Shown piece by piece: positions 7,181 through 31,078 of a DNA stretch of 64,000 nucleotides. The stretch covers positions 92,548 through 156,547 of the forward strand of contig JACQJR010000001.1 in assembly GCA_016204995.1 (NCBI GenBank). The letters are read 5' to 3'. The stretch's first letter is position 1. Each line of letters begins with the position of its first letter. The translations under genes were made by a program, and so were the position numbers. This DNA comes from Candidatus Microgenomates bacterium (lineage in GTDB: Bacteria; Patescibacteriota; Microgenomatia; UBA8517; JACQJR01). The notes beneath the pieces were generated by a model. The model searched no databases. It was not told the origin of the DNA and worked only from the letters and a program-made list of their open reading frames with translations.

Positions 7181-7290
7181 TTAACCTAATTGCTCTAATT
7201 GACCTAATTTCTAAATAATGACCAAGATTAGAAATTTTTCCTGATTTGGGATTTATTTAGGTAAATTAGGAATTAGAATAATTAGAAATT
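7181..7290. repeat. AT-rich intergenic inverted-repeat element built from TTCTAATT/AATTAGAA units (copy 1, murA-mraY spacer)
   Basis: ttaacctaattgctctaattgacctaatttctaa...attagaaatt...aattagaataattagaaatt. The left and right arms are reverse complements. The same unit recurs at 12684-12766, 18388-18500 and 30988-31078. Confidence 0.6.
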
Positions 7291-7295
7291 TTCGT

Positions 7296-8555
7296 TTATT
7301 CTACTCTTGTTATTTCTGCGCCTAATTTGGCAAGTCTTCCATCTAAATCCTCGTAACCCCGATCAATAATTTCAGCATGTTCAATAGTGGACTCACCATC
7401 AGCACCAAGAGCTGCTAACACTAGAGCCGAACCTGCTCTAATATCATTAGAGGGAATATTATCCGCCCGTAGTTTAGTCGGCCCATTCACCACGATCCGA
7501 TGTGGATCGGCAATGGTGATGTCCGCCCCCATTTTGATTAAATGATCCACGAAAAATATCCGCCACTCATACATCCAATCGTGACAGATCACAGTTCCTT
7601 TAGACTGCGTTGCCAAAACAATGAAGGGGCTCATTAAATCAGTGGGAAAACCAGGCCATGGCCTGGTTTGGAAAGTTTTGCGGTTTGCCGCTAGCTCTCC
7701 CGGCATAATTTCCAGTTGATTTTCACTCGTCTTATATTGCACTCCTAAATGTCCTAAATAAGCCAAGATCATTTTTAGATTTTTAGTAGTAACTTCATTA
7801 ATCGTGATATGGCCGCCAGTTAAGGCCGCCGCGATAGCAAAGGTGCCTACGTCAATATGGTCATCAATTACTCGATGAGTAGTGCCAATAAGTTCCTTTT
7901 TGCCGGTAATATTTAAAATATTAGTGCCTCCGCCGATAATATCAGCTCCAGTTTTACTTAAAAACTGCGCTAAATCCTGAATATGAGGCTCTGCCGCCGC
8001 ATCTTCAATCACTGTATTACCTTCAATATTAGCCCCTAAAATCAATCCCATGGCGGTAGCCGTCACCGAAGCTTCTTCTAAAAAGATCTCGGCCGGTTTT
8101 AAATTAGCCCCATCTAACTCAAAAACCCCATTACGCTCATCAATAGTTACCCCGAATTCATGAAGCAAACTAAAATGTGTATCCAGCAGACGTTCGCCGA
8201 TAGAATCTCCGCCCGGAGGAGTAATGGTGGCTTTTTTAAAGCGGGCTAGGAGCGGAGCCGCCAAAAGTACTGAAGCCCGGAATTTGCTCATTAGGGTTGG
8301 ATCTGTCTCCCATTTAGAAAGGCCGGAAGGATCAATTTTTAAAATGTTCGTACCTACACCCTCCACTTTTACTCCCAAACCTTCCAAAATTTGGGCCATA
8401 AACATCACATCCCGAATAATAGGCACATTGGTAAGGGTAACCGGGGAATTAGTCACCAGTGAGGCTGCCATCAGAGGAAGAGCGGCATTCTTGTTGCCGG
8501 CGGCGCTAATTTCACCTGTCAGGGCCTTACCGCCCTTAACCTTAAATTGAGCCAT
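7296..8555 (-). CDS. murA: UDP-N-acetylglucosamine 1-carboxyvinyltransferase
   Basis: N-terminus MAQFKVKGGKALTGEISAAGNKNAALPLMAASL matches the EPSP-synthase-fold MurA signature; length 419 aa. Confidence 0.9.
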   Translation of the reverse strand: MAQFKVKGGKALTGEISAAGNKNAALPLMAASLVTNSPVTLTNVPIIRDVMFMAQILEGLGVKVEGVGTNILKIDPSGLSKWETDPTLMSKFRASVLLAAPLLARFKKATITPPGGDSIGERLLDTHFSLLHEFGVTIDERNGVFELDGANLKPAEIFLEEASVTATAMGLILGANIEGNTVIEDAAAEPHIQDLAQFLSKTGADIIGGGTNILNITGKKELIGTTHRVIDDHIDVGTFAIAAALTGGHITINEVTTKNLKMILAYLGHLGVQYKTSENQLEIMPGELAANRKTFQTRPWPGFPTDLMSPFIVLATQSKGTVICHDWMYEWRIFFVDHLIKMGADITIADPHRIVVNGPTKLRADNIPSNDIRAGSALVLAALGADGESTIEHAEIIDRGYEDLDGRLAKLGAEITRVE

Positions 8556-8575
8556 ACCTTTTTATTGTAGCATGA

Positions 8576-9748
8576 CTACAGTTTTTCCGCCATTTTGACC
8601 AGCTCGTCAAATTTAAGTTTTCTGGAGGCCTTAAGAAGCATCACTACATTTCTATCCAAGCTATCTTTAATAGCCTTTTTTAAAATGTTTTCGCTAGGAA
8701 CAATAATAATTTGGTTATTTTTCATACCGCCGTTTCTTGCCCCTTCCACCAAAAATGGAGCAAATTGGCCAAAGCAGATTAAATTATCTATCTTTTTTTT
8801 AGCTACCCATTCCCCTACTTCTTGATGTCCCTTCTCTGTATAATCTCCCAGTTCCAACATATCTCCTAAAACCGCTGCAGTTTTTTTACCTTTACCAACC
8901 TCTATTAAGGTATCTATGGCCGCTTTGGCTCCTAAAGGACTACTATTATAAGTATCATCCAGAATGATGGCACCGCTTTTGGTAGTAACTGGTTGCAGCC
9001 GGTGAGGGGTTGGAATAAAACTTTCTAAACCCAACTTAATATCTTCAGGCTCTACATTAAAGGACAAACCGACAGCGGCGGCAGCCAAAGCTGCATAAAC
9101 AAAATGGGCCCCTAAAACTGGTAGAGTAATTTCAATTAATTGTTGATCAAAATTTAAGGTGAAAGTGGTTTGTAAATTAATAACTTTAATGTCTTGCGCT
9201 TTTATCTCACAACCGCGCCCTAAACCATATAAAATAACTTTAGCTTTAGTTTTTTCTGAAATCTGCTTAACTAACCGGTCATCTCCATTAACGATAGCTA
9301 AACCCTTTTGGGAAAGACCGGCAATTAATTTGCCCTTTTCGCGAGCAACTCCCTCAATATCACCAAAAAATTCTGTGTGGGTCCAATAAATATTAGTCAA
9401 AATGCCGATATCTGGTTTAGAAAGGGCTAGATAAAAATCCATATCCCCCTTATGGTCTACTCCCATTTCCAAAACTAGAACTTTAGTACCAGGGGTCGTC
9501 TTAAGAATAGTGGTAGGAATATTGTAAACCGGATCAATATTGGCGTAAGAGACACGTATTTTATATTTTTGCGACAACACAGAAGCAACCATTTCTTTAG
9601 TGGTAGTTTTTCCCACGCTGCCAGTAATGCCGATTACTTTTATGTCAGTAAATTTCTTTAGAAAAAATAAATAATTTTTTGCCAGTTGTCTTTTAACGGG
9701 ATGGTAAATTAGTTTTTTAATCATACTTTTAGAAAAGTTTTGGCCCAC
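8576..9748 (-). CDS. murF: UDP-N-acetylmuramoyl-tripeptide--D-alanyl-D-alanine ligase (short form)
   Basis: Mur ligase P-loop VIGITGSVGKTTTKEM and C-terminal AVLGDMLELG..GHQEVG motif typical of MurF. Shorter than usual at the N-terminus. Confidence 0.75.
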   Translation of the reverse strand: MGQNFSKSMIKKLIYHPVKRQLAKNYLFFLKKFTDIKVIGITGSVGKTTTKEMVASVLSQKYKIRVSYANIDPVYNIPTTILKTTPGTKVLVLEMGVDHKGDMDFYLALSKPDIGILTNIYWTHTEFFGDIEGVAREKGKLIAGLSQKGLAIVNGDDRLVKQISEKTKAKVILYGLGRGCEIKAQDIKVINLQTTFTLNFDQQLIEITLPVLGAHFVYAALAAAAVGLSFNVEPEDIKLGLESFIPTPHRLQPVTTKSGAIILDDTYNSSPLGAKAAIDTLIEVGKGKKTAAVLGDMLELGDYTEKGHQEVGEWVAKKKIDNLICFGQFAPFLVEGARNGGMKNNQIIIVPSENILKKAIKDSLDRNVVMLLKASRKLKFDELVKMAEKL

Positions 9749-10455
9749 ATATCAATTTCGCCCGCTATGGCTGCCGGCCGATGATAAGGCAAACTGTGTC
9801 CAATATTTTTAAATACCTTCAGAATAGACTTGGAAATTTGAGCTTTGGTTTGGTAAGCCAATGCTGGCGGTAAAATTTTATCACTTCCTCCCCAAAGTAT
9901 CAGCACTGGCATGGCAAGTTTTCCTAAATTATAGTAATTATCTCCTGAACGGATGCTGCGTAAAATAAGCCTATTCCAAAAACCACTAGGCATTTCATAA
10001 TAGTGCGACAAAACCCACTTTCTAATATTAGGAAACCAGATTAACATACCACCTAATAATTTATAAAAAAAGTGTTTTAGTGATGATGGAGAGGAAACAG
10101 TAGAGGAGCAAATTACTAATCCCCTTACATTTTTATCACCTAAGGCTAGCGCTGTGGCCACTCTACCACCAAAAGAATGACCAAAAACTATATAAGGCAG
10201 ATTTCCCCATTTGTCTTTGACAAAATTACTAATCACAGTCTTATAACCATCGGTTGTTAAAGGAATCTCCGGCTTAAACGATTTGCCAAAACCAGGTAAA
10301 TCAACCGCTAAAACATGCCATCCTTTTTTGACTAGATCACGAGCTAAAGGCCTAAACTTTTCTTTATCCACTGCCCAACCATGAATCAACACAATATTTT
10401 TCTCTCCCTGCCTGCGCAGGCAGGCCTCGCCTAATTCAAAATAACTTAATTCCAC
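9721..10455 (-). CDS. Alpha/beta-fold hydrolase embedded in the dcw operon
   Basis: IVLIHGW (HG oxyanion motif), GHSFGG nucleophile elbow, C-terminal His. Its N-terminal extension carries an in-frame copy of the 18-bp palindrome (ACLRRQ). Confidence 0.7.
   Translation of the reverse strand: MELSYFELGEACLRRQGEKNIVLIHGWAVDKEKFRPLARDLVKKGWHVLAVDLPGFGKSFKPEIPLTTDGYKTVISNFVKDKWGNLPYIVFGHSFGGRVATALALGDKNVRGLVICSSTVSSPSSLKHFFYKLLGGMLIWFPNIRKWVLSHYYEMPSGFWNRLILRSIRSGDNYYNLGKLAMPVLILWGGSDKILPPALAYQTKAQISKSILKVFKNIGHSLPYHRPAAIAGEIDMWAKTFLKV
10407..10424. repeat. 18-bp perfect palindrome CCTGCCTGCGCAGGCAGG, copy 1 (in-frame in the hydrolase CDS, encodes ACLRRQ)
   Basis: Exact 18-mer read from the sequence. 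The palindrome has no stop codon in any frame. Confidence 0.8.
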
Positions 10456-11354
10456 ACATCCCCTTCAAAACCAATTAATTGAACTTCTGGTTCAAGAGCA
10501 ATCCCAAATTTTTCCTGCACTTTTTGTCTATAAACTTTCGCCAGTTTCACGAAATCTGCCGCCGTGCCACCGCCACTATTGATAAATAAATTACCATGCC
10601 AGGTAGCAATTTCTACCCCATCTTCCCGCGCTCCTTTGGCCCCGACTTCTTCCAATAACCAACCTGCCGGAATTTTACCAAACATAATCTTATCCGCCGG
10701 AATTCTGTCTAAAATATCCTGCGTTAATTTAGCCGCTTCTACATTTTTGAAAAAACTGCCGGGACAAGCGAGACCCGGATGATATCTAATTAATCTCTGT
10801 TGCATAATTTCTTGTGACGTTTTAATTAATTGAACACTATCTGCCGTGGCCGTTATATCAAATGCCGCCTCTAAAATAATTTCTCCAGTTTCTTTAAATC
10901 TGCTATGACGGTAAGATAAATTACATTCCGCGCGAGTGTATTTTTTTAGTTGATCCTCATGTGAATCGTATATCTGTACCCATAAAATTTTATCGGCAAT
11001 AGTTTGGCCGTAAGCTCCAGCATTGCCATAAATAGCTCCGCCAATTGTGCCGGGAATACCAACTAGCTTCTCAAAACCAGCTTTGCCTTTTTCATTAGCC
11101 CATTCCACAAGTGTTGCCAAATCAGTCCCCGATCCCACCGCCTCATTGATGGCAGTATAGGAATTTTTGATGACCAGTCCTTCAAAACCGCTGTCTGCCA
11201 CCAATAAATTACTGCCTCCGCCGATCACCAAGTAGGGCATTTGACCAGTTTGAGCTTTTCTAATTTCTTCTACCAGCCCTTCCTTAGTCTTTGCCTCTAC
11301 CAATTCGCGAATATGGCCGCCAATTTTAAGAGTAGTGATTTCGGAAAAGTTCAT
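10446..11354 (-). CDS. murB: UDP-N-acetylenolpyruvoylglucosamine reductase
   Basis: FAD-binding N-terminus TLKIGGHIREL...YLVIGGGSNLLVAD and the MurB C-terminal domain. Start overlaps murC stop by 4 nt. Confidence 0.88.
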   Translation of the reverse strand: MNFSEITTLKIGGHIRELVEAKTKEGLVEEIRKAQTGQMPYLVIGGGSNLLVADSGFEGLVIKNSYTAINEAVGSGTDLATLVEWANEKGKAGFEKLVGIPGTIGGAIYGNAGAYGQTIADKILWVQIYDSHEDQLKKYTRAECNLSYRHSRFKETGEIILEAAFDITATADSVQLIKTSQEIMQQRLIRYHPGLACPGSFFKNVEAAKLTQDILDRIPADKIMFGKIPAGWLLEEVGAKGAREDGVEIATWHGNLFINSGGGTAADFVKLAKVYRQKVQEKFGIALEPEVQLIGFEGDVWN

Positions 11355-12664: not shown

Positions 12665-12683
12665 AAAAACAAATTTAAATTAA

Positions 12684-12766
12684 CCAATTTCTAATTGTTC
12701 TAATTTCTAATCAAATCTCAATTCCCAAAATTTTAGGTCAATTAGGTTAATTAGAAATTAGAAATT
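12684..12766. repeat. AT-rich intergenic inverted-repeat element (copy 2, murE-murC spacer)
   Basis: Left arm aatttctaattgttctaatttctaat, ~30-bp spacer, right arm attaggttaattagaaattagaaatt. The arms are near-perfect reverse complements, giving a MITE/REP-like long hairpin. Confidence 0.6.
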
Positions 12767-14079
12767 TTATCCCCCATTCTTTTTACCCCTCCTTTCAGCG
12801 ATACTCTGGCTGCTTCCTGATCTGACCAGGGGTATTCCATATTATCAATGGCCATAGATCTTTCGTGGCCTTTGCCGCAAAGAGCAACAATATCACCCGG
12901 GGCAGCTAATTTTTGAATTGCCAAGGCGATCGCTTCACCTCTTTCCGGTACTTTAACCACCCATTTCCCGCCTTTTCTCCAATTAGTCTGTCCGTCCCAA
13001 ACTTGAGCCTCTTGCCTAATACCGCGCGTTATATCATCAATAATCCGTTCCACATCTTCTGTCCGGGGATCATCAGCCGTCAGTATAATAAAATCAGCCA
13101 ACTTTGCGGCCGCCTTCCCCATCAAAGGACGCTTTCCTAAATCCCGTTGACCAGGACAGCCAAATGCCACAATTAGTTTACTCTTAGGAGGTTTTATTTT
13201 ACCCAGGGCTGTCAGTAAATTTTCCAAAGATCCCGGCGTATGAGCAAAATCCACTACCACAGTAAATTTTTTCCCTTCATTTATTACTTCCATTCTACCC
13301 CTTAAACCGGCAAAACTACTAACTGCCTCTCTAATTTTATCCCAAGCCACATTTAAACTTCTCACTGCTCCAGCCGCCGCTAAAATATTCGCCGCGTTAT
13401 ATTCACCGATCAATTTAGTCTGGAAATTCATACTTTTACCTTCTGCCTTAACCTCAAATTCCATTCCACCAGGAGTTAAGTTGACACTTTTATATACGAT
13501 CATAGCATGTTTTGATACATCATAAGAACCATAAGAGATGATTTTAGCATCACTACTAGCTTTTTGTTGTAAATAATCAAACGATGGGTCATCTTGATTT
13601 AACACTGCCACTTTAACTCCCCTTAATAATTTTGCTTTAGCCTCCCGATATCTCTCAAAAGTTTTATGATAATCAAGGTGTTCATGGGTGATATTAGTTA
13701 CTACTCCTATCTTAAAATTACCACCCAAGACCCGATGCTGGTCTAAACCATGCGAAGTGGTTTCTATCACGACGTGAGTGACACCTCTCTGCCGAGCTTG
13801 AGCAAGGATTGATTGCATAACCCGCGGATCAGGAGTAGTCACATGCAAACCGGTATCAATTTCTTCACCATCTAAAAACGCCCCTAAAGTAGAAATTACG
13901 GCTGTTTTATAGCCAGCAATACTTAAAATATGACCGATTAAATGAGTGGTGGTGGTTTTGCCATCAGTACCTGTTACTCCAATGACGGTCAAATCGCGAG
14001 CCGGATAGCCATTTTTAATAACCTGCCAAACAGCTGTTAAAAGATGCTGAAAATTCCGCCACCGGCCGTAGAGATTCAT
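12751..14079 (-). CDS. murE: UDP-N-acetylmuramoyl-L-alanyl-D-glutamate--2,6-diaminopimelate (or L-lysine) ligase
   Basis: VIGVTGTDGKTTTTHLIGHIL P-loop and Mur ligase C-terminal domain. Positioned after ftsI, as in canonical dcw order. Confidence 0.88.
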   Translation of the reverse strand: MNLYGRWRNFQHLLTAVWQVIKNGYPARDLTVIGVTGTDGKTTTTHLIGHILSIAGYKTAVISTLGAFLDGEEIDTGLHVTTPDPRVMQSILAQARQRGVTHVVIETTSHGLDQHRVLGGNFKIGVVTNITHEHLDYHKTFERYREAKAKLLRGVKVAVLNQDDPSFDYLQQKASSDAKIISYGSYDVSKHAMIVYKSVNLTPGGMEFEVKAEGKSMNFQTKLIGEYNAANILAAAGAVRSLNVAWDKIREAVSSFAGLRGRMEVINEGKKFTVVVDFAHTPGSLENLLTALGKIKPPKSKLIVAFGCPGQRDLGKRPLMGKAAAKLADFIILTADDPRTEDVERIIDDITRGIRQEAQVWDGQTNWRKGGKWVVKVPERGEAIALAIQKLAAPGDIVALCGKGHERSMAIDNMEYPWSDQEAARVSLKGGVKRMGDKISNF

Positions 14080-14091
14080 AGCTAAAGTATA

Positions 14092-15837: not shown

Positions 15838-15840
15838 ACG

Positions 15841-16122: not shown

Positions 16123-16123
16123 C

Positions 16124-17014
16124 TTAAATCCTTTCCGCTATCCTTAATTTGGCGCTTTTCGCGCGGGGATTAGCCGCAATCTCCGCCTGACTTGGCCTAA
16201 TTGGTTTTTTAGTCAAAATTTTTAAATTATCCATCGCTTCCTGTTCTTTAAAAAAATTTTTAATAATGCTGTCCTCTCCCGAATGAAAACTAATCACTAC
16301 CAGCCTTCCTCTCTTGCCTAAAATTTCTACCGCACCTTTTAATCCCTCTTTTAAATTTTCCAATTCTCTATTTACCGCTATCCTCAAGGCTAAAAAAATT
16401 AAAGCTAGCGGACTAATACTTCTTTTCCGGCCTGCCTGTACTCTATCAATTACCGCCACCAGATCGCGAGTTTCCTCAAACTTTTTTAGCTCTCTGGCGC
16501 GGACAATAGCACGAGCAATTGTGCCAGCCACGTTTTTCGGCACAGTTTGGCTAAATAATTCATTTAATTGATCCTCTCTTAAGCTGTTTAACAGGTCGGC
16601 TGCCGTTACACCTTGAGCTTGCGGATTCATTCTCATATCCAACAGGTTGCTTTGAGTGAAAGAGAAACCTCGCGCACTGCCAAGCTGCGTGCTGGATATG
16701 CCTAAATCAAACAGCACTCCATCTACGGGCACGAAATTATGCTCCTTAGCCACTTCGGTGATCTTTGCGAAATTAGAATGGGCAAAAACAACATCAGGAC
16801 TCGCCTGCGCAGGCAGGCAGGATAAAAGATGTTGTCTAGCCGTCTCCAAGGCTTCTTTATCCCAATCCATCGCCAGTACTCTGGCACCTTGTTCACAGAT
16901 AGCCCTGGTGTGTCCTCCGCCACCTAAAGTTGCGTCTATGTACCGACCTTGTTTTTTAATGTGCAAATAATCTACTACCTCTTTAATTAATACCGGGATA
17001 TGGTTACTTTCCAT
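16124..17014 (-). CDS. rsmH: 16S rRNA (cytosine1402-N4)-methyltransferase RsmH (MraW)
   Basis: HIPVLIKEVVDYL, SAM-binding DATLGGGGH, and LLDMRMN motifs. Contains an in-frame palindrome variant (CLPAQAS). Confidence 0.9.
   Translation of the reverse strand: MESNHIPVLIKEVVDYLHIKKQGRYIDATLGGGGHTRAICEQGARVLAMDWDKEALETARQHLLSCLPAQASPDVVFAHSNFAKITEVAKEHNFVPVDGVLFDLGISSTQLGSARGFSFTQSNLLDMRMNPQAQGVTAADLLNSLREDQLNELFSQTVPKNVAGTIARAIVRARELKKFEETRDLVAVIDRVQAGRKRSISPLALIFLALRIAVNRELENLKEGLKGAVEILGKRGRLVVISFHSGEDSIIKNFFKEQEAMDNLKILTKKPIRPSQAEIAANPRAKSAKLRIAERI
16802..16821. repeat. Palindrome family variant CGCCTGCGCAGGCAGGCAGG inside rsmH (in-frame, encodes LPAQA)
   Basis: Core GCCTGCGCAGGC is perfectly palindromic; extended by CAGGCAGG. 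Confidence 0.6.
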
Positions 17015-17447: not shown

Positions 17448-17456
17448 AATAATTGG

Positions 17457-17476
17457 GCAGGCCTGCCTGCGCAGGC
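17457..17476. repeat. Palindrome family variant GCAGGCCTGCCTGCGCAGGC, intergenic, 10 bp upstream of the mraZ start, flanked by GGGCAGGC direct repeats
   Basis: Read directly from the sequence. GGGCAGGC occurs at 17454-17461 and 17500-17507. Confidence 0.6.
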
Positions 17477-17543
17477 TAGAAGTTGGGGGATGGGCAGGCT
17501 AATCATGACTGAATGTGATGATTTTCCCCCACTTTTCACCACT

Positions 17544-18387: not shown

Positions 18388-18500
18388 AAATTTCTAATTT
18401 TCAATTTCTAATTTCTAATGAATTTTCAATGACTCAATGTTTAAAACATTAAAAATTGATCCCGATTCAATCGGGATTGATTGAAAATTGTAAATTAAGA
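18388..18500. repeat. AT-rich intergenic repeat element (copy 3) carrying the CCCGATTCAATCGGG palindrome
   Basis: aaatttctaattttcaatttctaatttctaatg ... gatCCCGATTCAATCGGGattgattgaaaattgtaaattaagaattaaaaatt. Lies downstream of the glyQS stop. Confidence 0.55.
18461..18475. repeat. Palindrome CCCGATTCAATCGGG (family 2, intergenic copy)
   Basis: Exact 15-bp palindrome. Longer CCCCGATT(C/G)AATCGGGG copies occur at 20156-20172 and 32111-32127. Confidence 0.75.
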
Positions 18501-18523
18501 ATTAAAAATTATTACTTTTCTAA

Positions 18524-19816
18524 CTATTCACTATTTCGTAATTTCTTGTCAAGTACTTCTTTTAATTGATCAACGCTAACTCTCTCTTGTTTAGTGGTAT
18601 CACGATCGCGAATAGTGACCGTATTATCTTCTAAAGTTTGATAATCAATTGTTACGCACCAAGGTGTCCCAATTTCATCTTGAGCGTAATATCGCTTGCC
18701 GATATTACCCCGTTCGTCAAAAAAAGTCGGATAGTTGGTACTTATGAGTTCATAGACAGAATGGGCTTTTTCAACTATTTCCGGCTTATTAGCCACCAAC
18801 GGGAATACTGCCACTTTGTAAGGAGCTACTTTTGGATTTAATTTGAGGATCATCCGGTCGCCATCTTCAGTATAAGCAGATAGTAATATGGTCAAAAAGG
18901 TTCTGCCGACTCCAAAAGTTGGTTCTACCACATGCGGGAAAAACTTTTCTCCGGTTTGCGGATCTTCGTATTGCAAATCCTGGCCAGATTTAGCAGTATG
19001 ATTTTTCAAGTCAAAATCAGTCCGGTAAGCTAAGCCATATAGTTCTCCCCAGCCAAAAGGAAATTCAAACTCAATATCTTCTGTCCTCTTTGAATAATGT
19101 GATAATTCATCATGGCCGTGAGCCCGCCACTTTAGTCTATCTTTATCTACACCCACATCCAGCAACCACTGCCACATTCTATTTTTCCATTCTTCAAATT
19201 CTTTTTCCCAACTATCAGGCCGGACAAACCATTCAATTTCCATCTGTTCAAATTCCAAAGTCCTAAAAATAAAATTGCCTGGAGTAATCTCGTTTCTGAA
19301 AGCCTTACCAATTTGAGCAATACCAAAAGGCAAGGTGGGCCGTTCGGTAATTAAAATATTTTTAAAGTTCACAAACATTCCTTGAGCAGTTTCCGGCCGC
19401 AAGTATGCAATACTGCCTTGCTCTTCCACCGGCCCGATAAAAGTTTTAAACATTAAATTAAACAGTTTTGCCTCTGCCAGCTCCCCGCTGCATTCCGGAC
19501 ATTTGTTACTATCTATGTGATCTGCCCGAAATCTTTTATGACAAGATTTACATTCTACCAATGGATCAGTAAATGAAGCGATATGTCCCGAAGCTTCCCA
19601 AACTTTAGGATTAGAAATGATGCCGGAATCCAAGGGAAAAACATTATCCCGCCTATCCACAAAACTATCCCACCAAAGTTTCTTAATATTAGCCAGCATC
19701 CGCGCTCCCAACGGGCCATAATCCCAAGTATTAGCCATCCCACCGTAAATTTCCGACCCCGGATAAACAAATCCCCGCCGCTTACACAAAGATACAATTT
19801 TGTCCATAGAAACCAT
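18524..19816 (-). CDS. glyQS: Glycine--tRNA ligase (dimeric class II form)
   Basis: N-terminus IVSLCKRRGFVYPGSEIYGGMANTWDYGPLG and the class II motif 2/3 region; 430 aa. Confidence 0.9.
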   Translation of the reverse strand: MVSMDKIVSLCKRRGFVYPGSEIYGGMANTWDYGPLGARMLANIKKLWWDSFVDRRDNVFPLDSGIISNPKVWEASGHIASFTDPLVECKSCHKRFRADHIDSNKCPECSGELAEAKLFNLMFKTFIGPVEEQGSIAYLRPETAQGMFVNFKNILITERPTLPFGIAQIGKAFRNEITPGNFIFRTLEFEQMEIEWFVRPDSWEKEFEEWKNRMWQWLLDVGVDKDRLKWRAHGHDELSHYSKRTEDIEFEFPFGWGELYGLAYRTDFDLKNHTAKSGQDLQYEDPQTGEKFFPHVVEPTFGVGRTFLTILLSAYTEDGDRMILKLNPKVAPYKVAVFPLVANKPEIVEKAHSVYELISTNYPTFFDERGNIGKRYYAQDEIGTPWCVTIDYQTLEDNTVTIRDRDTTKQERVSVDQLKEVLDKKLRNSE

Positions 19817-20074: not shown

Positions 20075-20635
20075 CTAATTTAAAAACTTTAGAAATCTTC
20101 TGGTGCGAAGTCTCGCTTGGATTAAATTCTCAATAGTGGCATCTACATCAGCTTGCCCCGATTCAATCGGGGCTGACGGGTGCAAAAATCCTAAATCGGT
20201 CAATATGGCTTTTTTAAAGCGAATCACAAATTCAGCCATCCGGCTATAATCAATCTTGGTTAAATAGTTAAAAGCACTTTCCAGAATTTCATAAACCTTT
20301 TTTTGCTCCTGCTCTTCCCGCGTTAATTTATTAACCACTTCAGCCAAATGATAGGCAATGCCGACTTTGGCTAAATCTTTGCGCCATTCGTTGAAATTAT
20401 TTTTTACCTCTACTTCGGTAATAATATTAAAAGTTTTGCCCCGGGCCAAAAAAATACTTACTTGATTAAATAACTCTACACTGCCGCGCTTACGGCTCGT
20501 CGGTCTGCGCACGCCTTTGGCAATCACCCGCAGTTTCCCCTGCTGTTCAGAAAAAATTGTCAAAAGCCTGTCTGCCTCACCAATATTCCTTCTTGCCAAA
20601 ATAATCGCTTCTAGTTTATAGCTTCTTTGTTTCAT
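20075..20635 (-). CDS. recO: DNA repair protein RecO (short form)
   Basis: N-terminal OB-fold region LEAIILARRNIGEADRLLTIFSEQQGKLRVIAKGVRR matches the RecO signature. Carries an in-frame CCCCGATTCAATCGGGG copy (SAPIESGQ). Confidence 0.65.
   Translation of the reverse strand: MKQRSYKLEAIILARRNIGEADRLLTIFSEQQGKLRVIAKGVRRPTSRKRGSVELFNQVSIFLARGKTFNIITEVEVKNNFNEWRKDLAKVGIAYHLAEVVNKLTREEQEQKKVYEILESAFNYLTKIDYSRMAEFVIRFKKAILTDLGFLHPSAPIESGQADVDATIENLIQARLRTRRFLKFLN
20156..20172. repeat. Palindrome CCCCGATTCAATCGGGG (family 2) in-frame within recO
   Basis: Exact 17-bp palindrome; translated as PIESG on the minus strand. Confidence 0.75.
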
Positions 20636-20649: not shown

Positions 20650-21408
20650 CTAAGAACAGTTTTTGGCTTTACGCCAGCCGGCGGCCACTGCTTCAACTTC
20701 TGTACAAAACCAACGCTCACCACTTTCCGTATTAATCATTGTTTTATCATAACTTTTACAACCGAGTAAATGATAAATTTTATCGCCACTAGCGCTGATA
20801 TTACCCTTGATTAGGCAGTTGGGCGATTGGCCTGCCTGCGCAGGCAGGGCTGTTGGGTCATTAGATTCTTGAATTACACCTTGTACTTGGCAGAAATCGC
20901 TCGCCCATAAACCGCGGCCGGCTTCCCTTGCTTCTTCTTCAGCAACTAAAAATTTATCTTTATATTTTACATCAGGTGGAAAAGTAGAAACGCGCGCCAT
21001 GCCTAACCTAATTAACTCTTCATTTACCATTAAATTATCTACATAAACGTATCTTAACAATCTACCGTATTTGTCCGTTTCTGAAATATCTTTTTCTAGT
21101 CTGACTTTTTTGCCCAACACCAGCTCTTTATTTTTCCTGGTGGACTCTTCTACCCCACATTTTCCGCTCTCTGGCGTATCCATACCGATATAACGAAGTT
21201 TTTTCCCGCCTTCTATCTCAATGGTATCTCCGTCAATAATTCGTGTTACCGCAACAAATTGACTGGCGATCGCAGAAGTATCTGTGGCACTAGGAACAAC
21301 TGAATTAGTAGGAAAGCTGGGAGATTTCTGATCGCGACTTTCGCCCCATAAAATAAAAGCGGCCAAGATGCTGATAATCCCGACTGCGGCTAGAAGTTTT
21401 TCTCTCAC
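20650..21408 (-). CDS. Secreted thermonuclease (staphylococcal-nuclease/SNase fold) with a Cys-containing C-terminal extension
   Basis: N-terminal TM/signal. SNase motifs VTRIIDGDTIEI, LRYIGMDTPE, YGRLLRYVYV, AREAGRGLW. C-terminal CxxxGNISASGDKIYHLLGCKSY...WFCTEVEA domain. An 18-bp palindrome sits in the linker (ALPAQAGQ). Confidence 0.8.
   Translation of the reverse strand: MREKLLAAVGIISILAAFILWGESRDQKSPSFPTNSVVPSATDTSAIASQFVAVTRIIDGDTIEIEGGKKLRYIGMDTPESGKCGVEESTRKNKELVLGKKVRLEKDISETDKYGRLLRYVYVDNLMVNEELIRLGMARVSTFPPDVKYKDKFLVAEEEAREAGRGLWASDFCQVQGVIQESNDPTALPAQAGQSPNCLIKGNISASGDKIYHLLGCKSYDKTMINTESGERWFCTEVEAVAAGWRKAKNCS
20831..20848. repeat. 18-bp palindrome CCTGCCTGCGCAGGCAGG, copy in the nuclease CDS linker (LPAQAG)
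   Basis: Exact 18-mer. Confidence 0.8.
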
Positions 21409-23438: not shown

Positions 23439-23471
23439 AATTAATTATATCCTATTTCTCACTTTCTTTGC

Positions 23472-23498: not shown

Positions 23499-23502
23499 AA
23501 TG

Positions 23503-24141
23503 TTATACCGCTCCCTTACCTGTCAGCATAATCCAAGGACTCTTTAATAATATCACAAAATCAAGCCATAAAGATTTGCTTCTGGCATATTTGGCATCCA
23601 TCCGAATCCTTTTATCAAAATTGACTTCAGAGCGGCCGGATACTTGCCACAAACCGGTAATGCCGGGGCGGATTGAAATTACCTCTTTAACTAACTGGCT
23701 AGTTTCGGGATATTTCTTCTGCTGTTCTACTAGCTCATCTTCATAATAAGGCCGCGGCCCGATCAAACTCATTTCTCCATTTAGGACATTAAAAAGCTGC
23801 GGCAGCTCATCCAAAGAATGATGACGTAAAAAATTTCCCACCGGCGTAATTCGGGGATCATTTCTCAATTTATAGCTGGATTTTTTGTATTCATCGTATA
23901 ATTTTTTAAACTTGGGATCGTGAGTTAATAAATCATGAGCATTAGCGATCATAGAGCGAAACTTATACAACCTGAACAATTCTCCATCTTTTCCTACCCG
24001 CAAGGGTGTTTGGGCGAGTATCGGCCCCGGCGAAGTAAATTTTATTAGAAAAGCAATTAAAAGCATGAAGGGAGAAAAAATAAGGAGTAAAATAATGGCT
24101 AAAGTTACATCCAATACTCGTTTAATAGAGTCGTAAAACAT
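23503..24141 (-). CDS. Initiating polyprenyl-phosphate sugar phosphotransferase (small 'bacterial sugar transferase', WbaP/PglC-like)
   Basis: VLDVTLAIILLLIFSPFMLLIAFLIKFTSPGPILAQTPLRVGKDGELFRLYKFRSM is the hallmark of the bacterial sugar transferase family. Confidence 0.88.
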   Translation of the reverse strand: MFYDSIKRVLDVTLAIILLLIFSPFMLLIAFLIKFTSPGPILAQTPLRVGKDGELFRLYKFRSMIANAHDLLTHDPKFKKLYDEYKKSSYKLRNDPRITPVGNFLRHHSLDELPQLFNVLNGEMSLIGPRPYYEDELVEQQKKYPETSQLVKEVISIRPGITGLWQVSGRSEVNFDKRIRMDAKYARSKSLWLDFVILLKSPWIMLTGKGAV

Positions 24142-24143
24142 AT

Positions 24144-26343: not shown

Positions 26344-27449
26344 TCATTTGCCACTTTATTGTAGGTTGATAAAGTTTCTTGAACCATTTTCTTCCAACTA
26401 AAACTGGCAGCTCTTTTATAACCCAATCTAATTTTTTGGGCAAGGAGTTTTTTGTTTGATAAAGTTTCCTTAATAACTTTTGCTATATCTGCCGGATCGT
26501 TTTGATTAAAAAAAGTGGCAGCTTCGCCGTAGACTTCATGAAAGACTGGGATGTCAGAAACTATCACTGGACAGCCCAAATTCATCGCCTCCAGTGGCGG
26601 GATACCAAAGCCTTCCATTCGCGAAGCAGTCACTGAAGCGGAAGCAAAATAATACCAGGCACCAATTTGATTGTTATCCACTGCCCCTATTATTTCTACC
26701 TTATCCTGTAAATTTTGCTTTTTAACAAACTCCTCTATTTTAGGATAGAAAAATTTATCGCTGCCCACTAGCACTAATTTAAAATTAGGAATATCCTTCA
26801 TTGCCAAAACTAGACTTTCTACATTTTTATGCGGATGAACATTACCCACATATAAAATATAAGGCGCGAGCTTTTTCATTTGATTAAATTGACTCCCGGT
26901 AAACTTTTTTCTGATATCATCAATTTCTCCAGACTCATAAGTGACCACGATTTTATTTGGATCTACCGAGTAATGATCAACAATTTCACTTTTAGCGTCA
27001 TTGGATAAAGTAAAAATAGTGCGGGCGCGTCTAGTGGCAATCCATAACACGACGTGATATCCCAGTCTTTTAATTAAATAAAACCAATACGGGAGTGTAG
27101 AAGCTTTGCCAGTTTTATAATGGTCAAAAATTAAATCGTGAATTGTCACCACAAATTTTTTAGGATAAAAAATAGGGAAAGAAAAATAGGGAAAATGCAG
27201 TAAGTCTAAATTTTCGCGGTTAAAAACTTGCGGCAGATAAACTTGCTCAGCTAAAGTATGCCAATGAATATTAGTTTCAACTTTGCGCCACTTGGAATTA
27301 GGCATTTCTAAAGTGTCAAATTCCTGCTTTCCTAAAAACCAGACATATTCATTTTCTTGATCCAGTTCGGGTAGATATTTAAATAAACTCCTAATATACC
27401 GTCCCACCCCCGTCTCATTCCATAATCTACCATCAATACCAATCCGCAT
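26340..27449 (-). CDS. Glycosyltransferase family 4 (GT-B)
   Basis: EGFGIPPLEAMNLGCPVIVSDIPVFHEV motif. Confidence 0.85.
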   Translation of the reverse strand: MRIGIDGRLWNETGVGRYIRSLFKYLPELDQENEYVWFLGKQEFDTLEMPNSKWRKVETNIHWHTLAEQVYLPQVFNRENLDLLHFPYFSFPIFYPKKFVVTIHDLIFDHYKTGKASTLPYWFYLIKRLGYHVVLWIATRRARTIFTLSNDAKSEIVDHYSVDPNKIVVTYESGEIDDIRKKFTGSQFNQMKKLAPYILYVGNVHPHKNVESLVLAMKDIPNFKLVLVGSDKFFYPKIEEFVKKQNLQDKVEIIGAVDNNQIGAWYYFASASVTASRMEGFGIPPLEAMNLGCPVIVSDIPVFHEVYGEAATFFNQNDPADIAKVIKETLSNKKLLAQKIRLGYKRAASFSWKKMVQETLSTYNKVANE

Positions 27450-27577
27450 GAATTAAGTATAGCAAATTTACCTTAATTGCTTTAACAATTCAAATCGCTT
27501 GAACATACCTCCAAGGTCTCTCCTTGGAAACTCACAGGAGTGCTCTTGCTGGTTAATCTAATAAAAGTAATTTTATC

Positions 27578-27607
27578 TTGTAAATAAGAATAAAAATTGG
27601 TAAAAAT
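27578..27607 (+). promoter_or_regulatory. Candidate sigma70-type promoter TTGTAA-N17-TAAAAAT immediately upstream of the Bro-N/DinD-like gene (leaderless or near-leaderless start)
   Basis: ttgtaa at 27578-83, 17-bp spacer, taaaaat at 27601-07. Candidate starts are ATG 27608 or GTG 27612. Confidence 0.3.
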
Positions 27608-27611
27608 ATGA

Positions 27612-28448
27612 GTGGTGGAAGAAACAACTAAAATAGCTGTTTTCAAAGGCAAAGAAATTAGGAAAACTATTTATAAAAATGAATGGTGGTTTTCCATTGT
27701 TGATATTGTTGAAGCGTTAACCGGAACAGATAGACCAAGAAAATACTGGAGTGATCTCAAAAAAAAGTTACTTAAAGAAGGTTATGCTGAAGTGTCCGAA
27801 AAAATCGGACAGTTGAAGTTAGAAGCCCCTGATGGAAAGTTAAGAGAAACAGACTGTGCTAATACCGAGACTATATTTAGAATAATTCAAACTATTCCCT
27901 CACCTAAGGCTGAACCATTTAAGAGGTGGTTAGCAAGAGTGGGTTACGAGAGAATCCGAGAAATAGAAGATCCGGAGCTAGCCACTAAAAGAACCAGGGC
28001 GTTATATAAAGCCAAGGGATATTCTGATGCTTGGATTGAAAAACGAATGAGGGGAATTGAAATAAGGGAAACTTTAACTGATGAATGGAAAAAACGAAAA
28101 GTAGGCGGAGAAACAGAATATGCCATATTAACTGCTGAAATATCCAAAGCTACCTTTGGAATGACACCCAGCCAGTATAAAAAGTTTAAGAATCTAAAAA
28201 GAGAAAATTTAAGAGACCATATGAACGACCTTGAATTAATTTTCTCCATGCTTGGAGAAGCCTCAACAACAGAGATAGCTAAAAATAAGGATGCTCAAAG
28301 ATTTGTCCAAAATAAAAAAGCTGCGCAAGAAGGGGGAACTGTGGCAGGCAACGCTAGAAAAGAGCTGGAAAAAAGAAGCGGTCAAAAGGTTTCTATCAAA
28401 CAAAACTACCTTACCAAACCACAAAGTAGTAGATTACTAGAAAAGTAA
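27612..28448 (+). CDS. Bro-N domain protein, DinD (DNA-damage-inducible protein D)-like
   Basis: N-terminal IAVFKGKEIRKTIYKNEWWFSIVDIVEALTGTDRPRKYWSDLKKKL fits the Bro-N consensus. About 278 aa, like E. coli DinD. The only plus-strand gene in a long minus-strand run. GTG start in the track; start uncertain. Confidence 0.6.
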   Translation: MVEETTKIAVFKGKEIRKTIYKNEWWFSIVDIVEALTGTDRPRKYWSDLKKKLLKEGYAEVSEKIGQLKLEAPDGKLRETDCANTETIFRIIQTIPSPKAEPFKRWLARVGYERIREIEDPELATKRTRALYKAKGYSDAWIEKRMRGIEIRETLTDEWKKRKVGGETEYAILTAEISKATFGMTPSQYKKFKNLKRENLRDHMNDLELIFSMLGEASTTEIAKNKDAQRFVQNKKAAQEGGTVAGNARKELEKRSGQKVSIKQNYLTKPQSSRLLEK

Positions 28449-28464
28449 GACTAAACCTTAAAAA

Positions 28465-28851
28465 CTACTTTCTTATCAAAGGTATAGCTTCTTTGGGAAT
28501 TTTGCGCACTTTAATAGTTTTCATTCCTAGTTGTTTAGCTTTAACTAAACGATGTAGTCCATCCAATAATAGCCATCTATTCTTCCAAAACATAATATCT
28601 AATGGATATGAAAGATCAGACTTCATTGTTCTGTCAAATTCTTCTTTATACCCTTTTGGATTTGCCAAGACTTCATTAGGAGTTAAATCGTAAAATCCTC
28701 CTGGTTTATCCCAAAAGGGAATATCAAAATGCCATTCAAGTTCGGAAATATCCATTTCTTCTACTGGCAAATCCAATGCCCAAACTTTTTCCTCACTCCA
28801 ATGAAAATCAAATCCTACTTCTTCAATTATTTTTGGCAATTTTTTATCCAT
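28465..28851 (-). CDS. ParB/sulfiredoxin-like nuclease-domain protein (hypothetical)
   Basis: C-terminal LLDGLHRLVKAKQLGMKTIKVRKIP resembles the ParB N-terminal domain DGxHR...G...IP motif. 128 aa; convergent with the Bro-N gene. Confidence 0.45.
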   Translation of the reverse strand: MDKKLPKIIEEVGFDFHWSEEKVWALDLPVEEMDISELEWHFDIPFWDKPGGFYDLTPNEVLANPKGYKEEFDRTMKSDLSYPLDIMFWKNRWLLLDGLHRLVKAKQLGMKTIKVRKIPKEAIPLIRK

Positions 28852-28894
28852 GTAGCTAACCCGCGTTATATCATATATTCATATATGATATATC

Positions 28895-29791
28895 TCACCA
28901 AAACAGTAATCTGTATTTCTCTAGAATCCAGATACCGGTCCAGACTAGCCAAAGAATTGGGGCAGGGTATTGGCCGACATAATGCTTTTTATAAAAAATC
29001 CGCATGGCTTCTACTGATGCCAAAGCTGCTCTTCCTCGTGTACCACGAGTAGCAGATGAAACTGATTTTGTCTGTTTTTTGACCCCGGAGGAAATGCCTC
29101 GGTAATGTAAAATAGACACTGTTGGCACATACATAATTTTCCAGTTAGATTTTTTTAAACGATAGCAAAAATCTAAATCTTCTCCATACCAAAAATAATC
29201 CTCATCCCACCAACCAACCTGCTCGCCCGCCTCGCGTCTAACTATCATAAAAGCACCGGTTAGGGCATCAATTTCATGAATATTATGGCGGCTCATATAG
29301 CCAAGAGTGTAGCCGGAAAAAAGCCGCGACTTGGGGAATAAATTTTCTAAACCAAAAAAGTGGCAGAAAGCGTTCCAGGGGGTGGGGAAACCACGATGAG
29401 CTCCATCATCTAAACCGCCGCCAGGAGCATTAACTTGACAGGTGGCCGCCCCCACTTCACTGTTTTCATCCATAAATTTAATCATGGAAACAAAAGTATT
29501 TTTTTCTACCTCTGTATCAGGATTTAAAAATAAAATATAACGGCCTTTAGCTCCTGGAATTGCTACATTATTCCCTTTCGCAAATCCAAGATTATTTTTA
29601 TTCTCTATAATTTTGAACTTTTCACTTTGCACTTTTAACTCTTCTATCGATCCATCAGTTGAGGCGTTATCAGAAACAATTATCTCCCAGGAATATTTTC
29701 CAGCTACTGATCTTTTAATTGATTGAAGACATTTAATAATAAAATCTTTAGCATTATAATTAAGAATAATAATTGATAGGTCAATACTCAC
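28895..29791 (-). CDS. Glycosyltransferase family 2 (GT-A)
   Basis: LSIIILNYNAKDFIIKCLQSI...IIVSDNASTDGS with DxD-type motifs. Confidence 0.85.
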   Translation of the reverse strand: MSIDLSIIILNYNAKDFIIKCLQSIKRSVAGKYSWEIIVSDNASTDGSIEELKVQSEKFKIIENKNNLGFAKGNNVAIPGAKGRYILFLNPDTEVEKNTFVSMIKFMDENSEVGAATCQVNAPGGGLDDGAHRGFPTPWNAFCHFFGLENLFPKSRLFSGYTLGYMSRHNIHEIDALTGAFMIVRREAGEQVGWWDEDYFWYGEDLDFCYRLKKSNWKIMYVPTVSILHYRGISSGVKKQTKSVSSATRGTRGRAALASVEAMRIFYKKHYVGQYPAPILWLVWTGIWILEKYRLLFW

Positions 29792-30983
29792 CGCCCACCT
29801 CCCGATAAATATTATCTAAATGTTCGGCAATTTTAGTCCAATTATATTTTTCTTCAAATAGGCGACGCGCAGAACTGGTTATATTGGCATAAAACTTTTT
29901 ATCTTTTATTAAACTAATTGCGGCTTTGGCCATTTCTTCCGGTGCGTCTCTGACTAACACTTCCTGATTATTCTCTGCCGAAATCCCTTCAATGCCGATA
30001 GAAGTCGTGACTACCGGCACACCAGCCGCCATCGCCCCTAAAATTTTTAAGCGCGTTCCCCCTGGACCAGCCAACGGAGCCACGAAAATAGTCGCATTTC
30101 CATAAGCGCGCCTGACACCATCGATGTCCGATGATTTTAATTCATGGATTTCTATGCCATTACCAGCCAAATCACCGATTTTTTCCTTCACTCCTTGTCC
30201 CACGATCCAACAAACTGCCTCTGGAATTTCTTTCTTAATTAAAGGAAAAATATCTTTAGCTAAAATTTTGGCGGCTTCGGTATTTTGCAACCAATTAAAG
30301 TTGCCTTGATAAAGAATAATTGGAGTGGTAATTGATCTTCTCTTGCCCCATAAATTTACCAGATCTTCACCGGCGCCATTAGGAACAATATCCACATGTA
30401 AATTAGGAACTAGGGACAGCATTTTAGCTTTATCTGATTCTGACATGGCGATGACTCTTTTGGCCTTTTTCCAAAACCTTGATTCCCAAAACTTCAACTT
30501 GAAAACATCCAGATATAAAAATGGCTTTAAGGGAAAGATGCGAAAACTGTCTAAATAATGTTGATAGACTTGATACTCAATGGTTTGTTCAACCAAAAGT
30601 ATCGGCACCGTAGTTTTAGGAATATTAGTCATCACATAAAAAGTTTCCGAATGAATTAAATCATAGGGTTGTTTTTTTAATTCCTCTTTGACTGCCCGCC
30701 GAAAACTGGGTAAAAGATAAATTGCTACTAAAAAGGGGTAGGGAGTAGCACCGGATAGCAAAACATTAATCATTGACCAAGCTCTTCTTCTTTTAAAAAC
30801 CTTAACTTCTTTACAATATTTTGTGAGCTCTGCCACATATTTTTTCTCTGCTTCATCCCTGATATAGCAAAAAAGAGTAATGTCATGTTTTTTATAAAGC
30901 TGCTTGATTAAATTATAGGAACGGACCTGCCCGCCGGAAGAAGGCGGATAAGGCAGATAAGGAGTGAGCATTAAGATACGCAT
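29781..30983 (-). CDS. Glycosyltransferase family 4 (GT-B)
   Basis: MRILMLTPYLPYPPSSGGQVRSYNLIKQL N-terminal GT4 signature and a C-terminal GT-B domain. Confidence 0.85.
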   Translation of the reverse strand: MRILMLTPYLPYPPSSGGQVRSYNLIKQLYKKHDITLFCYIRDEAEKKYVAELTKYCKEVKVFKRRRAWSMINVLLSGATPYPFLVAIYLLPSFRRAVKEELKKQPYDLIHSETFYVMTNIPKTTVPILLVEQTIEYQVYQHYLDSFRIFPLKPFLYLDVFKLKFWESRFWKKAKRVIAMSESDKAKMLSLVPNLHVDIVPNGAGEDLVNLWGKRRSITTPIILYQGNFNWLQNTEAAKILAKDIFPLIKKEIPEAVCWIVGQGVKEKIGDLAGNGIEIHELKSSDIDGVRRAYGNATIFVAPLAGPGGTRLKILGAMAAGVPVVTTSIGIEGISAENNQEVLVRDAPEEMAKAAISLIKDKKFYANITSSARRLFEEKYNWTKIAEHLDNIYREVGGEY

Positions 30984-30987
30984 AGAT

Positions 30988-31078
30988 AATTGACCTAATT
31001 AACCTAATTTCTAATTGACCTAAAATTTGTACATTGGGATTTGATTAGAAATTAGAACAATTAGTAATTAGAATAATT
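30988..31078. repeat. AT-rich intergenic inverted-repeat element (copy 4)
   Basis: taattgacctaattaacctaatttctaattgacctaaaatttgtacattgggatttgattagaaattagaacaattagtaattagaat. Confidence 0.6.

Follow-up and report, generated by a model that had tools for sequence, protein, structure and literature searches.

What kind of element occupies the junction from a stop codon to the following start codon is the question raised by four AT-rich spacers, two of them inside the dcw (division and cell wall) operon, in Candidatus Microgenomates bacterium (GenBank assembly GCA_016204995.1, contig JACQJR010000001.1, positions 92,548 to 156,547; this whole stretch of 64,000 nucleotides (nt) is termed the window). 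A preliminary description, made from the letters of the window, reported inverted repeats in the four spacers, compared them with MITEs (transposable elements that are miniature and bear inverted repeats) and repetitive extragenic palindromic (REP) sequences, and suggested that they might carry promoters, attenuators or RNase processing sites. That observation is confirmed and the MITE/REP-like reading is right in kind, and the copies in the window are best described as the gene-less variant, situated inside operons, of a palindromic cassette of the type known from rRNA as the intervening sequence (IVS). The four loci are probably short members, lacking an open reading frame (ORF), of a family of such cassettes that occupies stop-to-start junctions, and the identity of that family is more secure still, being very likely. 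Beyond the reach of the preliminary description were the link of the family to a gene for a four-helix-bundle protein, a copy inside a 23S rRNA gene and the spread over many phylum-level lineages.

The simplest explanation, a chance likeness among AT-rich spacers of low complexity, is favored by the composition of the spacers [21–24% G+C in a window of 30–45% G+C, in which nearly all genes lie on the minus strand] and by the lack of enrichment, over the window as a whole, of the hexamer CTAATT taken by itself (97 occurrences vs. 87 ± 9). Against this, paired clusters of the motif (at least two CTAATT within 16 nt, with AATTAG opposite, within ∼60 nt) are found at these four places only in the 64 kb, and with a 12-nt clustering rule there are three paired clusters in the window and none in 300 first-order Markov simulations. 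In addition, AATTAGAA occurs 19 times in the window where 9.5 ± 3.0 are expected, and the same arms, including a 21-mer variant described below, recur in hundreds of other genomes. A hidden Markov model of the arms, a check that the preliminary description had proposed, has matches in the window (E < 0.01) that are confined to the four loci, with copy 3 at E = 0.007. The predicted RNA folds of copies 1–4 on the gene strand have energies of −29.3, −21.1, −29.3, and −19.0 kcal/mol, and their z scores against dinucleotide shuffles are −5.7, −2.1, −4.2, and −3.3, respectively. Chance resemblance was excluded on the strength of the unique clusters, the empty simulations and the wide recurrence of the 21-mer, and it has a negligible probability.

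The genes named as neighbors of the four spacers were correctly labeled (MurA and MraY for copy 1, a Mur ligase and a MurC-type ligase for copy 2, GlyRS and an unknown protein for copy 3, and PMT_2 (GT-C) and GT4, both glycosyltransferases, for copy 4), and the refined element limits are slightly wider than those first given, with lengths of 92–125 nt (Table 1). The arms had been taken for reverse complements of each other, and they are indeed inverted, but they are arrays of a CTAAT core repeated at steps of 7 or 9 nt rather than simple complements. Similarly, the likeness of the four copies holds for copies 1, 2, and 4, with copies 2 and 4 matching in inverted orientation over 48 nt at 88%, centre included, whereas copy 3 is diverged; it has no TTGACC, its right arm is degenerate (AATTAAG/AATTAAA), and it contains an extra GC-rich inner hairpin. 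At all four copies the distance from the element end to the next start codon is 3–25 nt. Copy 1 lies 8 nt from the mraY ATG (7169–7171) and 4 nt from the murA stop codon (7296–7298), and the left arm of copy 4 ends 4 nt from the GT4 ATG (30981–30983). Copies 2 and 4 intrude into the upstream gene, the right arm of copy 2 containing its stop codon (12751–12753) and final five codons, and that of copy 4 the stop codon (31068–31070) and last few codons.

The family was traced by a DNA search in which one 21-base arm variant (ATTAGRAATTAGAANAATTAG) was compared with a species-representative genome collection. Among the matches listed there are more than 117 genome stretches, nearly all labeled Patescibacteria and distributed over many lineages (Microgenomates, Curtiss-, Levy-, Gottesman-, Roizman-, Doudna-, Staskawicz-, Nealson-, Terry-, Azam-, Portnoy-, Lipton-, Yanofsky-, Zambryski-, Magasanik-, Berkel-, and Saccharibacteria). 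Many loci are labeled “uncultured Gammaproteobacteria” or “Pseudomonadales,” and these labels are treated cautiously because the flank of at least one such locus (L046) is nearly equal to that of a locus labeled Patescibacteria (L032). A few matches are labeled Ignavibacteriales/Melioribacteraceae, Bacteroidales/Bacteroidota or Omnitrophota. Full CTAATT-type elements with labels from outside the Candidate Phyla Radiation (CPR) were seen at seven loci (L035, L069, L075, L081, L106, L108, and L111; Melioribacteraceae, Ignavibacteriales, Bacteroidales, Omnitrophota, and BMS3Abin03), and the Melioribacteraceae and BMS3Abin03 copies have a distinct centre (…GGTTATTGTGGATTGTTATTTG) in common; such copies point to cross-phylum transfer, mis-binning or wrong labels. 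A phage vector was also considered and was rejected, as the 21-mer is present on one viral contig only. Conservation extends beyond the 21-mer, which is preceded by ...TTGGGATTTATTTAGGTCA, followed by AAATT and faced by an opposing arm of the type AATTGACCTAATTAACCTAATTTCTAAATAA, and the consensus element has the ends AAATTTCTAATT...AATTAGAAATTT.

The anatomy of the unit arrays was established from counts in 873 kb of fetched sequence. Full short elements number 79 there, with a median length of 109 nt, and a further 69 arms stand singly. Each arm is made of 2–5 units with the core CTAAT(T), the opposite arm has the units inverted, and the centre of the short form is 20–60 nt long. The spacing is strict, since 344 of 352 core-to-core steps are either 7 nt (117 times) or 9 nt (227 times), with eight others, and the commonest units are CTAATTT, CTAATTATT, CTAATTAAC, CTAATTGAC, and CTAATTGCT. 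In the unbiased set both arms use one pool of units, and for this reason the short copies have no definable polarity; the searched arm, a weak marker of orientation given that lack of polarity, faces the downstream gene and faces away from it equally often (31:31). Mirrored arms had seemed to be avoided among the DNA-selected loci, but this was discarded as an ascertainment artefact, because the searched variant is present in only 1 of 124 arms of the unbiased sample, and the unbiased set has neither excess nor deficit.

The placement of the short copies is equally regular. Of the 69 full short copies for which both neighboring genes were called, 65 have neighbors that run in one direction (against a baseline of 629 co-directional gene pairs vs. 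200 others), and the copies lie typically 2–15 nt from the upstream stop and from the downstream start alike, and the upstream stop is often the TAA of a CTAATT unit. Stop codons recur within the arms at the 7- and 9-nt steps, as TAA in CTAATT and TAG in AATTAG, and an arm with at least two steps of 7 nt carries stops in all three frames. Insertion into the last codons of a gene, as at copies 2 and 4, would therefore be cheap, and the arms supply stop codons and C-terminal residues to host genes.

The nature of the family became apparent from its longer form. At six of the DNA-selected loci the same conserved gene stands upstream of the searched arm, and the same kind of arm also precedes the gene. 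The product matches PF05635 (“23S rRNA-intervening sequence protein,” E = 3e-12) and TIGR02436 (“four helix bundle protein,” E = 1e-17), and the ORF of ∼120 amino acids (aa) belongs to the S23p/IVS-protein family, its closest solved relative being 2RLD. To test the association from the protein side as well, the six proteins were aligned and the alignment was used to scan metagenomes. This gave at least 573 relatives, of which the best 80 were examined and 76 were testable. Arms, defined as at least two CTAAT no more than 70 nt before the ATG and at least two ATTAG no more than 90 nt after the stop, flank the gene on both sides in 62 of the 76 protein-selected loci, and at some of the remaining 14 loci different short units make up the arms, for example ACGAATG or CCAATTT. 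The ORF is in the sense orientation relative to its co-directional neighbors in 33 cases and antisense in one, and the gaps between it and its neighbors (medians of 50 and 70 nt) are the arms alone. The arms of the long form pair at a median of −34 kcal/mol (z = −5.2).

The linked gene is also well preserved. The ORF is intact in 74 of 80 cases, the proportion of nonsynonymous differences (pN) is 0.22 compared with a saturated synonymous value (pS) of 0.81, and dN/dS is about 0.19 where measurable, so that the ORF, by these substitution ratios, is under purifying selection. The cores of the arms remained constant over the time span in which the synonymous sites of this gene became saturated, and hence the arm cores are themselves under selection. 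The clade to which the gene belongs comprises at least 7,986 clusters of 90% identity at E ≤ 1e-20, whose members, where named, are called four helix bundle protein and come from Doudna-, Levy-, Davies- or Zambryskibacteria. In the DNA-selected loci the short copies, such as those in the window, are approximately ten times more common than gene-bearing ones.

IVSs in rRNA have been known since 1990, and their origin, their mobility and the role of their ORF are unsettled (PMC4990558). They are regarded as selfish elements bordered by complementary ends and cut by RNase III in the stem, and some of them, for example in Coxiella and Leptospira, carry an S23p ORF that, according to an old idea, serves mobility (PMC4990558), while 22 ORFs of the PF05635-type family have been counted within rRNA insertions of the CPR (PMC11270868). 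The present family resembles the rRNA IVSs of Leptospira and Coxiella burnetii in having complementary termini that form an extended stem, in a loop that may hold a PF05635/TIGR02436 ORF of ∼120 aa, as in the long forms, or nothing, and in sporadic presence. It differs from them in several respects. The rRNA IVS has a unique 28-bp stem whereas the arms described here are tandem 7/9-nt units, this family is multi-copy within a genome and common to many phylum-level lineages, and the Coxiella IVS ORF is decaying whereas the ORF of this family is intact and under purifying selection. Cutting by RNase III is described for the rRNA IVS and is putative, by analogy, for this family. Moreover, the copies in the window and nearly all other family members lie between protein genes rather than in an rRNA hairpin loop. 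When 20 long-form loci were scanned against Rfam, a single one (L188) proved to have an rRNA gene, with the ORF-bearing copy outside it, so the cassettes are generally not inside rRNA; a scan of the window at gathering thresholds had no Rfam matches and hence no rRNA, and a tRNA scan was likewise empty.

The single exception connects the two kinds of element. At L188 a canonical short copy (AATTTCTAATTGACCTAATTAACCTAAT...ATTAGAAATTAGAAATTAGAGATTT, 149 nt, positions 1769–1917) lies in the 23S rRNA gene and replaces the hairpin loop at about position 286 of the model RF02541. This gene came up in the Rfam scan only; rRNA primer motifs were absent from the fetched loci. Up to model position 1,764 the L188 23S gene (1–2389, minus strand) has three inserts of the IVS-like kind in all, and these include a 169-nt insert at about position 165 with the ends ACCTTGCATTCT/AGAATGCAGGGT and, at about position 583, an AT-rich palindrome of TTTTCAAT/ATTGGAA units. 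An element of the IVS kind with a recognizable signature is thus abundant outside rRNA, in the operon junctions of compact CPR genomes, which shifts the study of such elements from single-copy oddities to a family of hundreds to thousands of copies. No description of the intergenic family or of its arm sequences was found in the literature searched, which includes few subscription journals, so that this is not proof of novelty.

The same spacers were compared in three relatives (L202, L203, and L204), in which MurA is 64–70% identical and the gene order of the dcw operon is conserved. Both sites are empty in L204, where only 3 nt separate murA from mraY (TGAgatATG) and the murE-type gene overlaps murC. 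Both are filled in L202, by palindromes of 114–144 nt with the units TTCCATT/AATGGAA and CAAAGTT/AACTTTG. In L203 the murA/mraY site contains another, third type of palindrome and the murE/murC site a PF05635/bAvd ORF flanked by short ATGGTTAA/TTAACCAT arms. The dcw junctions are therefore repeatedly occupied by one cassette architecture in differing unit “dialects,” or are empty. A second PF05635 gene of L203 (GCA_016196685.1, Microgenomates; 18552–18899) has AGTGAA/TTCACT arms and is located in a type I restriction-modification operon, where hsdS and hsdR flank it.

This comparison bears on the proposal that the elements are host regulatory devices, which would terminate or attenuate transcription between cistrons or, as REP-like 3′ hairpins, shield the upstream cistron against exonucleases and thereby set the expression of adjacent genes relative to each other. 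Such a role would explain why the elements occur almost only between co-directional genes and directly after stops, why their folds are stable and why the arm cores are conserved, and in copy 3 a G+C stem does precede a run of T on the gene strand. This inner hairpin is the sole terminator-like feature among the four copies, so that the suggestion of attenuators survives for copy 3 alone, copies 1, 2, and 4 having neither a G+C stem nor a U tract, and terminator-like matches are not enriched (13 vs. 14.7 ± 4.0). The same spacers are empty in a relative with equal gene order, a copy resides within a 23S rRNA gene, a site at which a terminator would be lethal, and elements stand beside unrelated genes in unrelated lineages. 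Selection on the arms is explained equally well by propagation of the element itself. Regulation by the host is therefore an improbable account of the family, albeit the strongest of the alternatives considered.

A further alternative is that transcription of the downstream gene starts anew at promoters within the elements, either TTGACC ... TAAATAAT or a TAGAAT that faces outward. The genome rarely uses Shine-Dalgarno sequences (SD-like motifs are few among the start regions of about 59 window genes), and many genes have a TATAAT-like box 5–8 nt before the ATG (e.g., 5538, 8555, 14079, 23438, 27449, and 35965), which suggests leaderless or very short-leader mRNAs. Element ends lie 2–15 nt from start codons, and the consensus right arm has TAGAAT about 12 nt before many starts. 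However, TTGACC always points inward, in copy 1 the gap from TTGACC to TAAATAAT (TAAATA) is only 7 nt, and there is no acceptable −35 sequence 16–18 nt before TAGAAT in the consensus. Promoter-like matches are at the level of shuffled sequence (37 vs. 32.8 ± 5.6 and 5 vs. 4.3 ± 2.5). A search for the sigma-70 pattern with 16–18 nt spacing on the gene strand gave one weak 9/12 match in copy 2 and nothing in copies 1 and 4, copy 4 having matches on the opposite strand only, and the even split of the arm facing the downstream gene is also contrary to such a role. The genes may have their own closely set promoters, and the arms supply no convincing one; the idea of internal promoters was not borne out, and it is very improbable.

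That the element is repeated in the source genome, as the preliminary description would have it, is evident from short-read assemblies. The exact MurA protein is encoded on four contigs (L001–L004), each of which ends 42–100 nt beyond murA, inside the element, and the contig L207 passes the left edge of the window and ends inside a fifth copy, 41 nt after murG, whose arm is identical to that of copy 3. Since contigs break in the arms and a fifth copy follows murG just outside the window, the element must be multi-copy in this genome. As these five Logan contigs (runs SRR12113383/384/420/430) are from the same population and all end within arms, the repeats fragment short-read assemblies of CPR genomes. 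Many relatives of the linked four-helix-bundle gene are located on contigs of just 550–2,000 nt.

Comparison with known repeats clarifies what is right in the MITE/REP-like reading and what is not. As in MITEs, the elements are short (92–125 nt) and non-coding, have terminal inverted repeats, are dispersed in several copies per genome, and show presence/absence polymorphism at orthologous sites, in this case at 64–70% MurA identity only. They lack the target-site duplication of a MITE, and the longer partner with the same ends does exist but encodes the PF05635/TIGR02436 protein and not a transposase. The Correia elements, or NEMIS, of Neisseria are MITEs of 100–155 bp with unique 26-bp inverted repeats, a TA duplication and a site for integration host factor (IHF), and they are restricted to one genus. 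They resemble the copies in the window in being short, ORF-less, multi-copy inverted repeats that are often co-transcribed and form long hairpins in mRNA, and De Gregorio et al. (2002–2003) reportedly found that RNase III cleaves these hairpins, which makes them the nearest functional model for a possible effect of the window copies on operon transcripts. Unlike the Correia elements, the present family has no detected target duplication, has arms built from units, is linked to a non-transposase gene and is spread across phyla.

The REP sequences and bacterial interspersed mosaic elements (BIMEs) of Proteobacteria are 20–40 nt long, G+C-rich and species-specific, and flank a Y1 transposase, the REP-associated tyrosine transposase (RAYT, or TnpA-REP). 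They share with this family an extragenic palindrome at the 3′ ends of genes in operons, either orientation, and the flanking of one characteristic small gene. The elements described here differ in length (80–130 nt in the family and 92–125 nt in the window), in composition (21–24% G+C), in their cross-phylum distribution and in flanking PF05635, a four-helix-bundle protein with no known catalytic role, rather than RAYT. The short tandemly repeated repetitive (STRR) heptanucleotides of heterocystous cyanobacteria, said to have been described by Mazel et al. (1990), are likewise tandem arrays of 7-nt units that are intergenic, often inverted and capable of forming hairpins, with different unit sequences and a different host group. 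We know of no established link between STRR sequences and a PF05635 gene.

If the IVS-type cassette is the correct reading, the elements would be, or would once have been, mobile and selfish, and retained only where they are harmless. In the transcripts of the dcw and glycosyltransferase genes the arms would fold into an imperfect, interrupted hairpin of 20–37 bp, and by analogy with the stems of rRNA IVSs this hairpin might be cut by RNase III and the neighboring cistrons so separated, a step that is possible although we lean somewhat against it. For the copies inside the dcw operon, such processing of mRNA could uncouple the cell-wall genes. The four-helix-bundle protein of the long copies would act on the arms, and this further step is doubtful. 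Excision from the transcript is a reasonable guess, because a copy within 23S rRNA must either be excised or be tolerated as an expansion.

Several observations weigh against this reading, and they concern mobility, the linked gene and the hairpin. No direct repeat of 2–5 nt beyond that of the palindrome itself was found at any offset in 77 copies, although old insertions could have lost a target-site duplication, and sequence conservation ends 7–8 nt outside the last CTAATT core. No transposase was found for the family, whose longer partner has the four-helix-bundle ORF instead. Intermediates of a deletion from long to short form were not seen, there being no remnant of the ORF in the short copies examined, and the window has no PF05635-like ORF, while of the relatives listed the best 120 are all located off the source contig (609,565 bp). 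Two copies from one genome resemble each other no more closely than two from different genomes (0.70 vs. 0.67, p = 0.08), which is unlike a recent MITE burst, and the gain and loss of copies between strains lies beyond view because the nearest relative has only 70% MurA identity. As to the hairpin, the spacer units of paired arms mirror each other no more than expected by chance (26 vs. 26 ± 3.4) and real arm pairs bind no better than chimeric ones (−29.5 vs. −28.5 kcal/mol, p = 0.19). The arms are thus not co-adapted, the helix, apart from the core that both arms share, is not supported by covariation, and RNase III may cut such interrupted stems poorly.

Non-mirrored arms, equal binding of chimeric pairs and equal similarity within and between genomes are better explained by a motif that a conserved factor reads than by a hairpin left to drift freely or by a transposition burst of recent date. 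One form of this idea is that the arms are arrays of DNA-binding sites for a conserved protein, such as a nucleoid or segregation factor, or are uptake signals for competence, and that the hairpin is incidental. In its favor are the conservation of only a 5–6-nt core, the strict spacing of 7 or 9 nt, the lack of co-adaptation of the arms for pairing, and the fact that copies are as alike across phyla as within a genome, as is expected for the site of a conserved factor. The spacings of 7 and 9 nt are not, however, on one face of the B-DNA helix, and no candidate host factor was identified. The strict inversion around a centre and the enclosure of one gene family fit a cassette-specific signal, and other unit dialects are found around related genes, even in one genome, unlike a host-wide signal. 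Binding sites for a host protein are hence a distinctly improbable explanation, less probable than host regulation and more so than promoters.

Within the reading of an IVS-type cassette, an obvious candidate for the factor that reads the arms is the protein encoded between them. The IVS protein (S23p/Avd-like), whose relatives of solved structure form a pentameric ring, would be the specificity factor of an unrecognised class of mobile cassette and would read the 7/9-nt units in the arms around its gene, with a unit dialect particular to each protein lineage. The protein would then drive the spread, or the excision at the RNA level, of gene-bearing and gene-less copies alike, and its targets would be operon junctions and rRNA hairpin loops across the CPR and beyond. 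This extension is unlikely, somewhat more so than action of the protein on the arms as such. If true, it would explain both the purpose of the IVS ORF and the movement of IVSs, a question since the early 1990s.

Table 1. Positions in the window of the four CTAATT-type elements, with their arms, and of other palindromes.
Feature	Position	Strand	Location	Left arm	Right arm	Sequence or remark
Copy 1	7179–7292		murA/mraY spacer	7179–7217 AATTAACCTAATTGCTCTAATTGACCTAATTTCTAAATA	7247–7292 TTGGGATTTATTTAGGTAAATTAGGAATTAGAATAATTAGAAATTT	
Copy 2	12676–12768		murE-type ligase/murC spacer	12676–12713	12733–12768	
Copy 3	18388–18512		glyQS/unknown-gene spacer	18388–18432 (AATTTCTAATTTTCAATTTCTAATTTCTAATG...)	18477–18512	
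Copy 3 inner hairpin, G+C-rich	18459–18477	minus	copy 3			ATCCCGATTGAATCGGGAT, then CAATTTTTAA on gene strand
Copy 4	30988–31079		GT-C (PMT_2)/GT4 spacer	30988–31024	31034–31079	
GGCT-type palindrome	183–256		murD/ftsW junction			GGGCTCATGGGCTTATAGGCTATTTGGCTCTTAGG / CCCAAGAGCCTAACTGCCCAATTGCCTAACAGCC; also L207 4178–4252
GGCT-type palindrome	36575–36650		glycosyltransferase ORF 36132–37292 (minus)			
GCCTGCGCAGGC-core palindrome	10401–10424					
GCCTGCGCAGGC-core palindrome	16792–16817					
GCCTGCGCAGGC-core palindrome	17456–17479					
GCCTGCGCAGGC-core palindrome	20825–20848					
GCCTGCGCAGGC-core palindrome	32131–32154					
GCCTGCGCAGGC-core palindrome	41681–41704					
CCCGATT(C/G)AATCGGG palindrome	18459–18477		copy 3			
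CCCGATT(C/G)AATCGGG palindrome	20148–20175		ORF			
CCCGATT(C/G)AATCGGG palindrome	32108–32135		ORF			

Other palindromes are present in the window (Table 1). The one at the murD/ftsW junction is built from GGCT-containing units and has the same architecture as the CTAATT elements in another unit dialect; it fills the junction, murD takes its last codons and its stop from it, and 4 nt separate its end from the ftsW ATG. A second copy of this type lies inside a glycosyltransferase ORF, where it is read through in frame (...FRLLGSLASRNNKPKSPMTQEPNDLSLVIAG...), and in this it resembles the in-frame palindromic insertions of Rickettsia. A G+C-rich palindrome with the core GCCTGCGCAGGC (the fullest copies being CCTGCCTGCGCAGGCAGG) has six copies in the window, five of which are in ORFs; four of these read LPAQAG or LPAQAS in unrelated proteins and one, in another frame, ACLRRQG, so that it looks like a small palindromic element that is tolerated in frame. 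The CCCGATT(C/G)AATCGGG palindrome has three copies, of which one forms the inner hairpin of copy 3 and another adjoins an LPAQAG palindrome (32108–32154).

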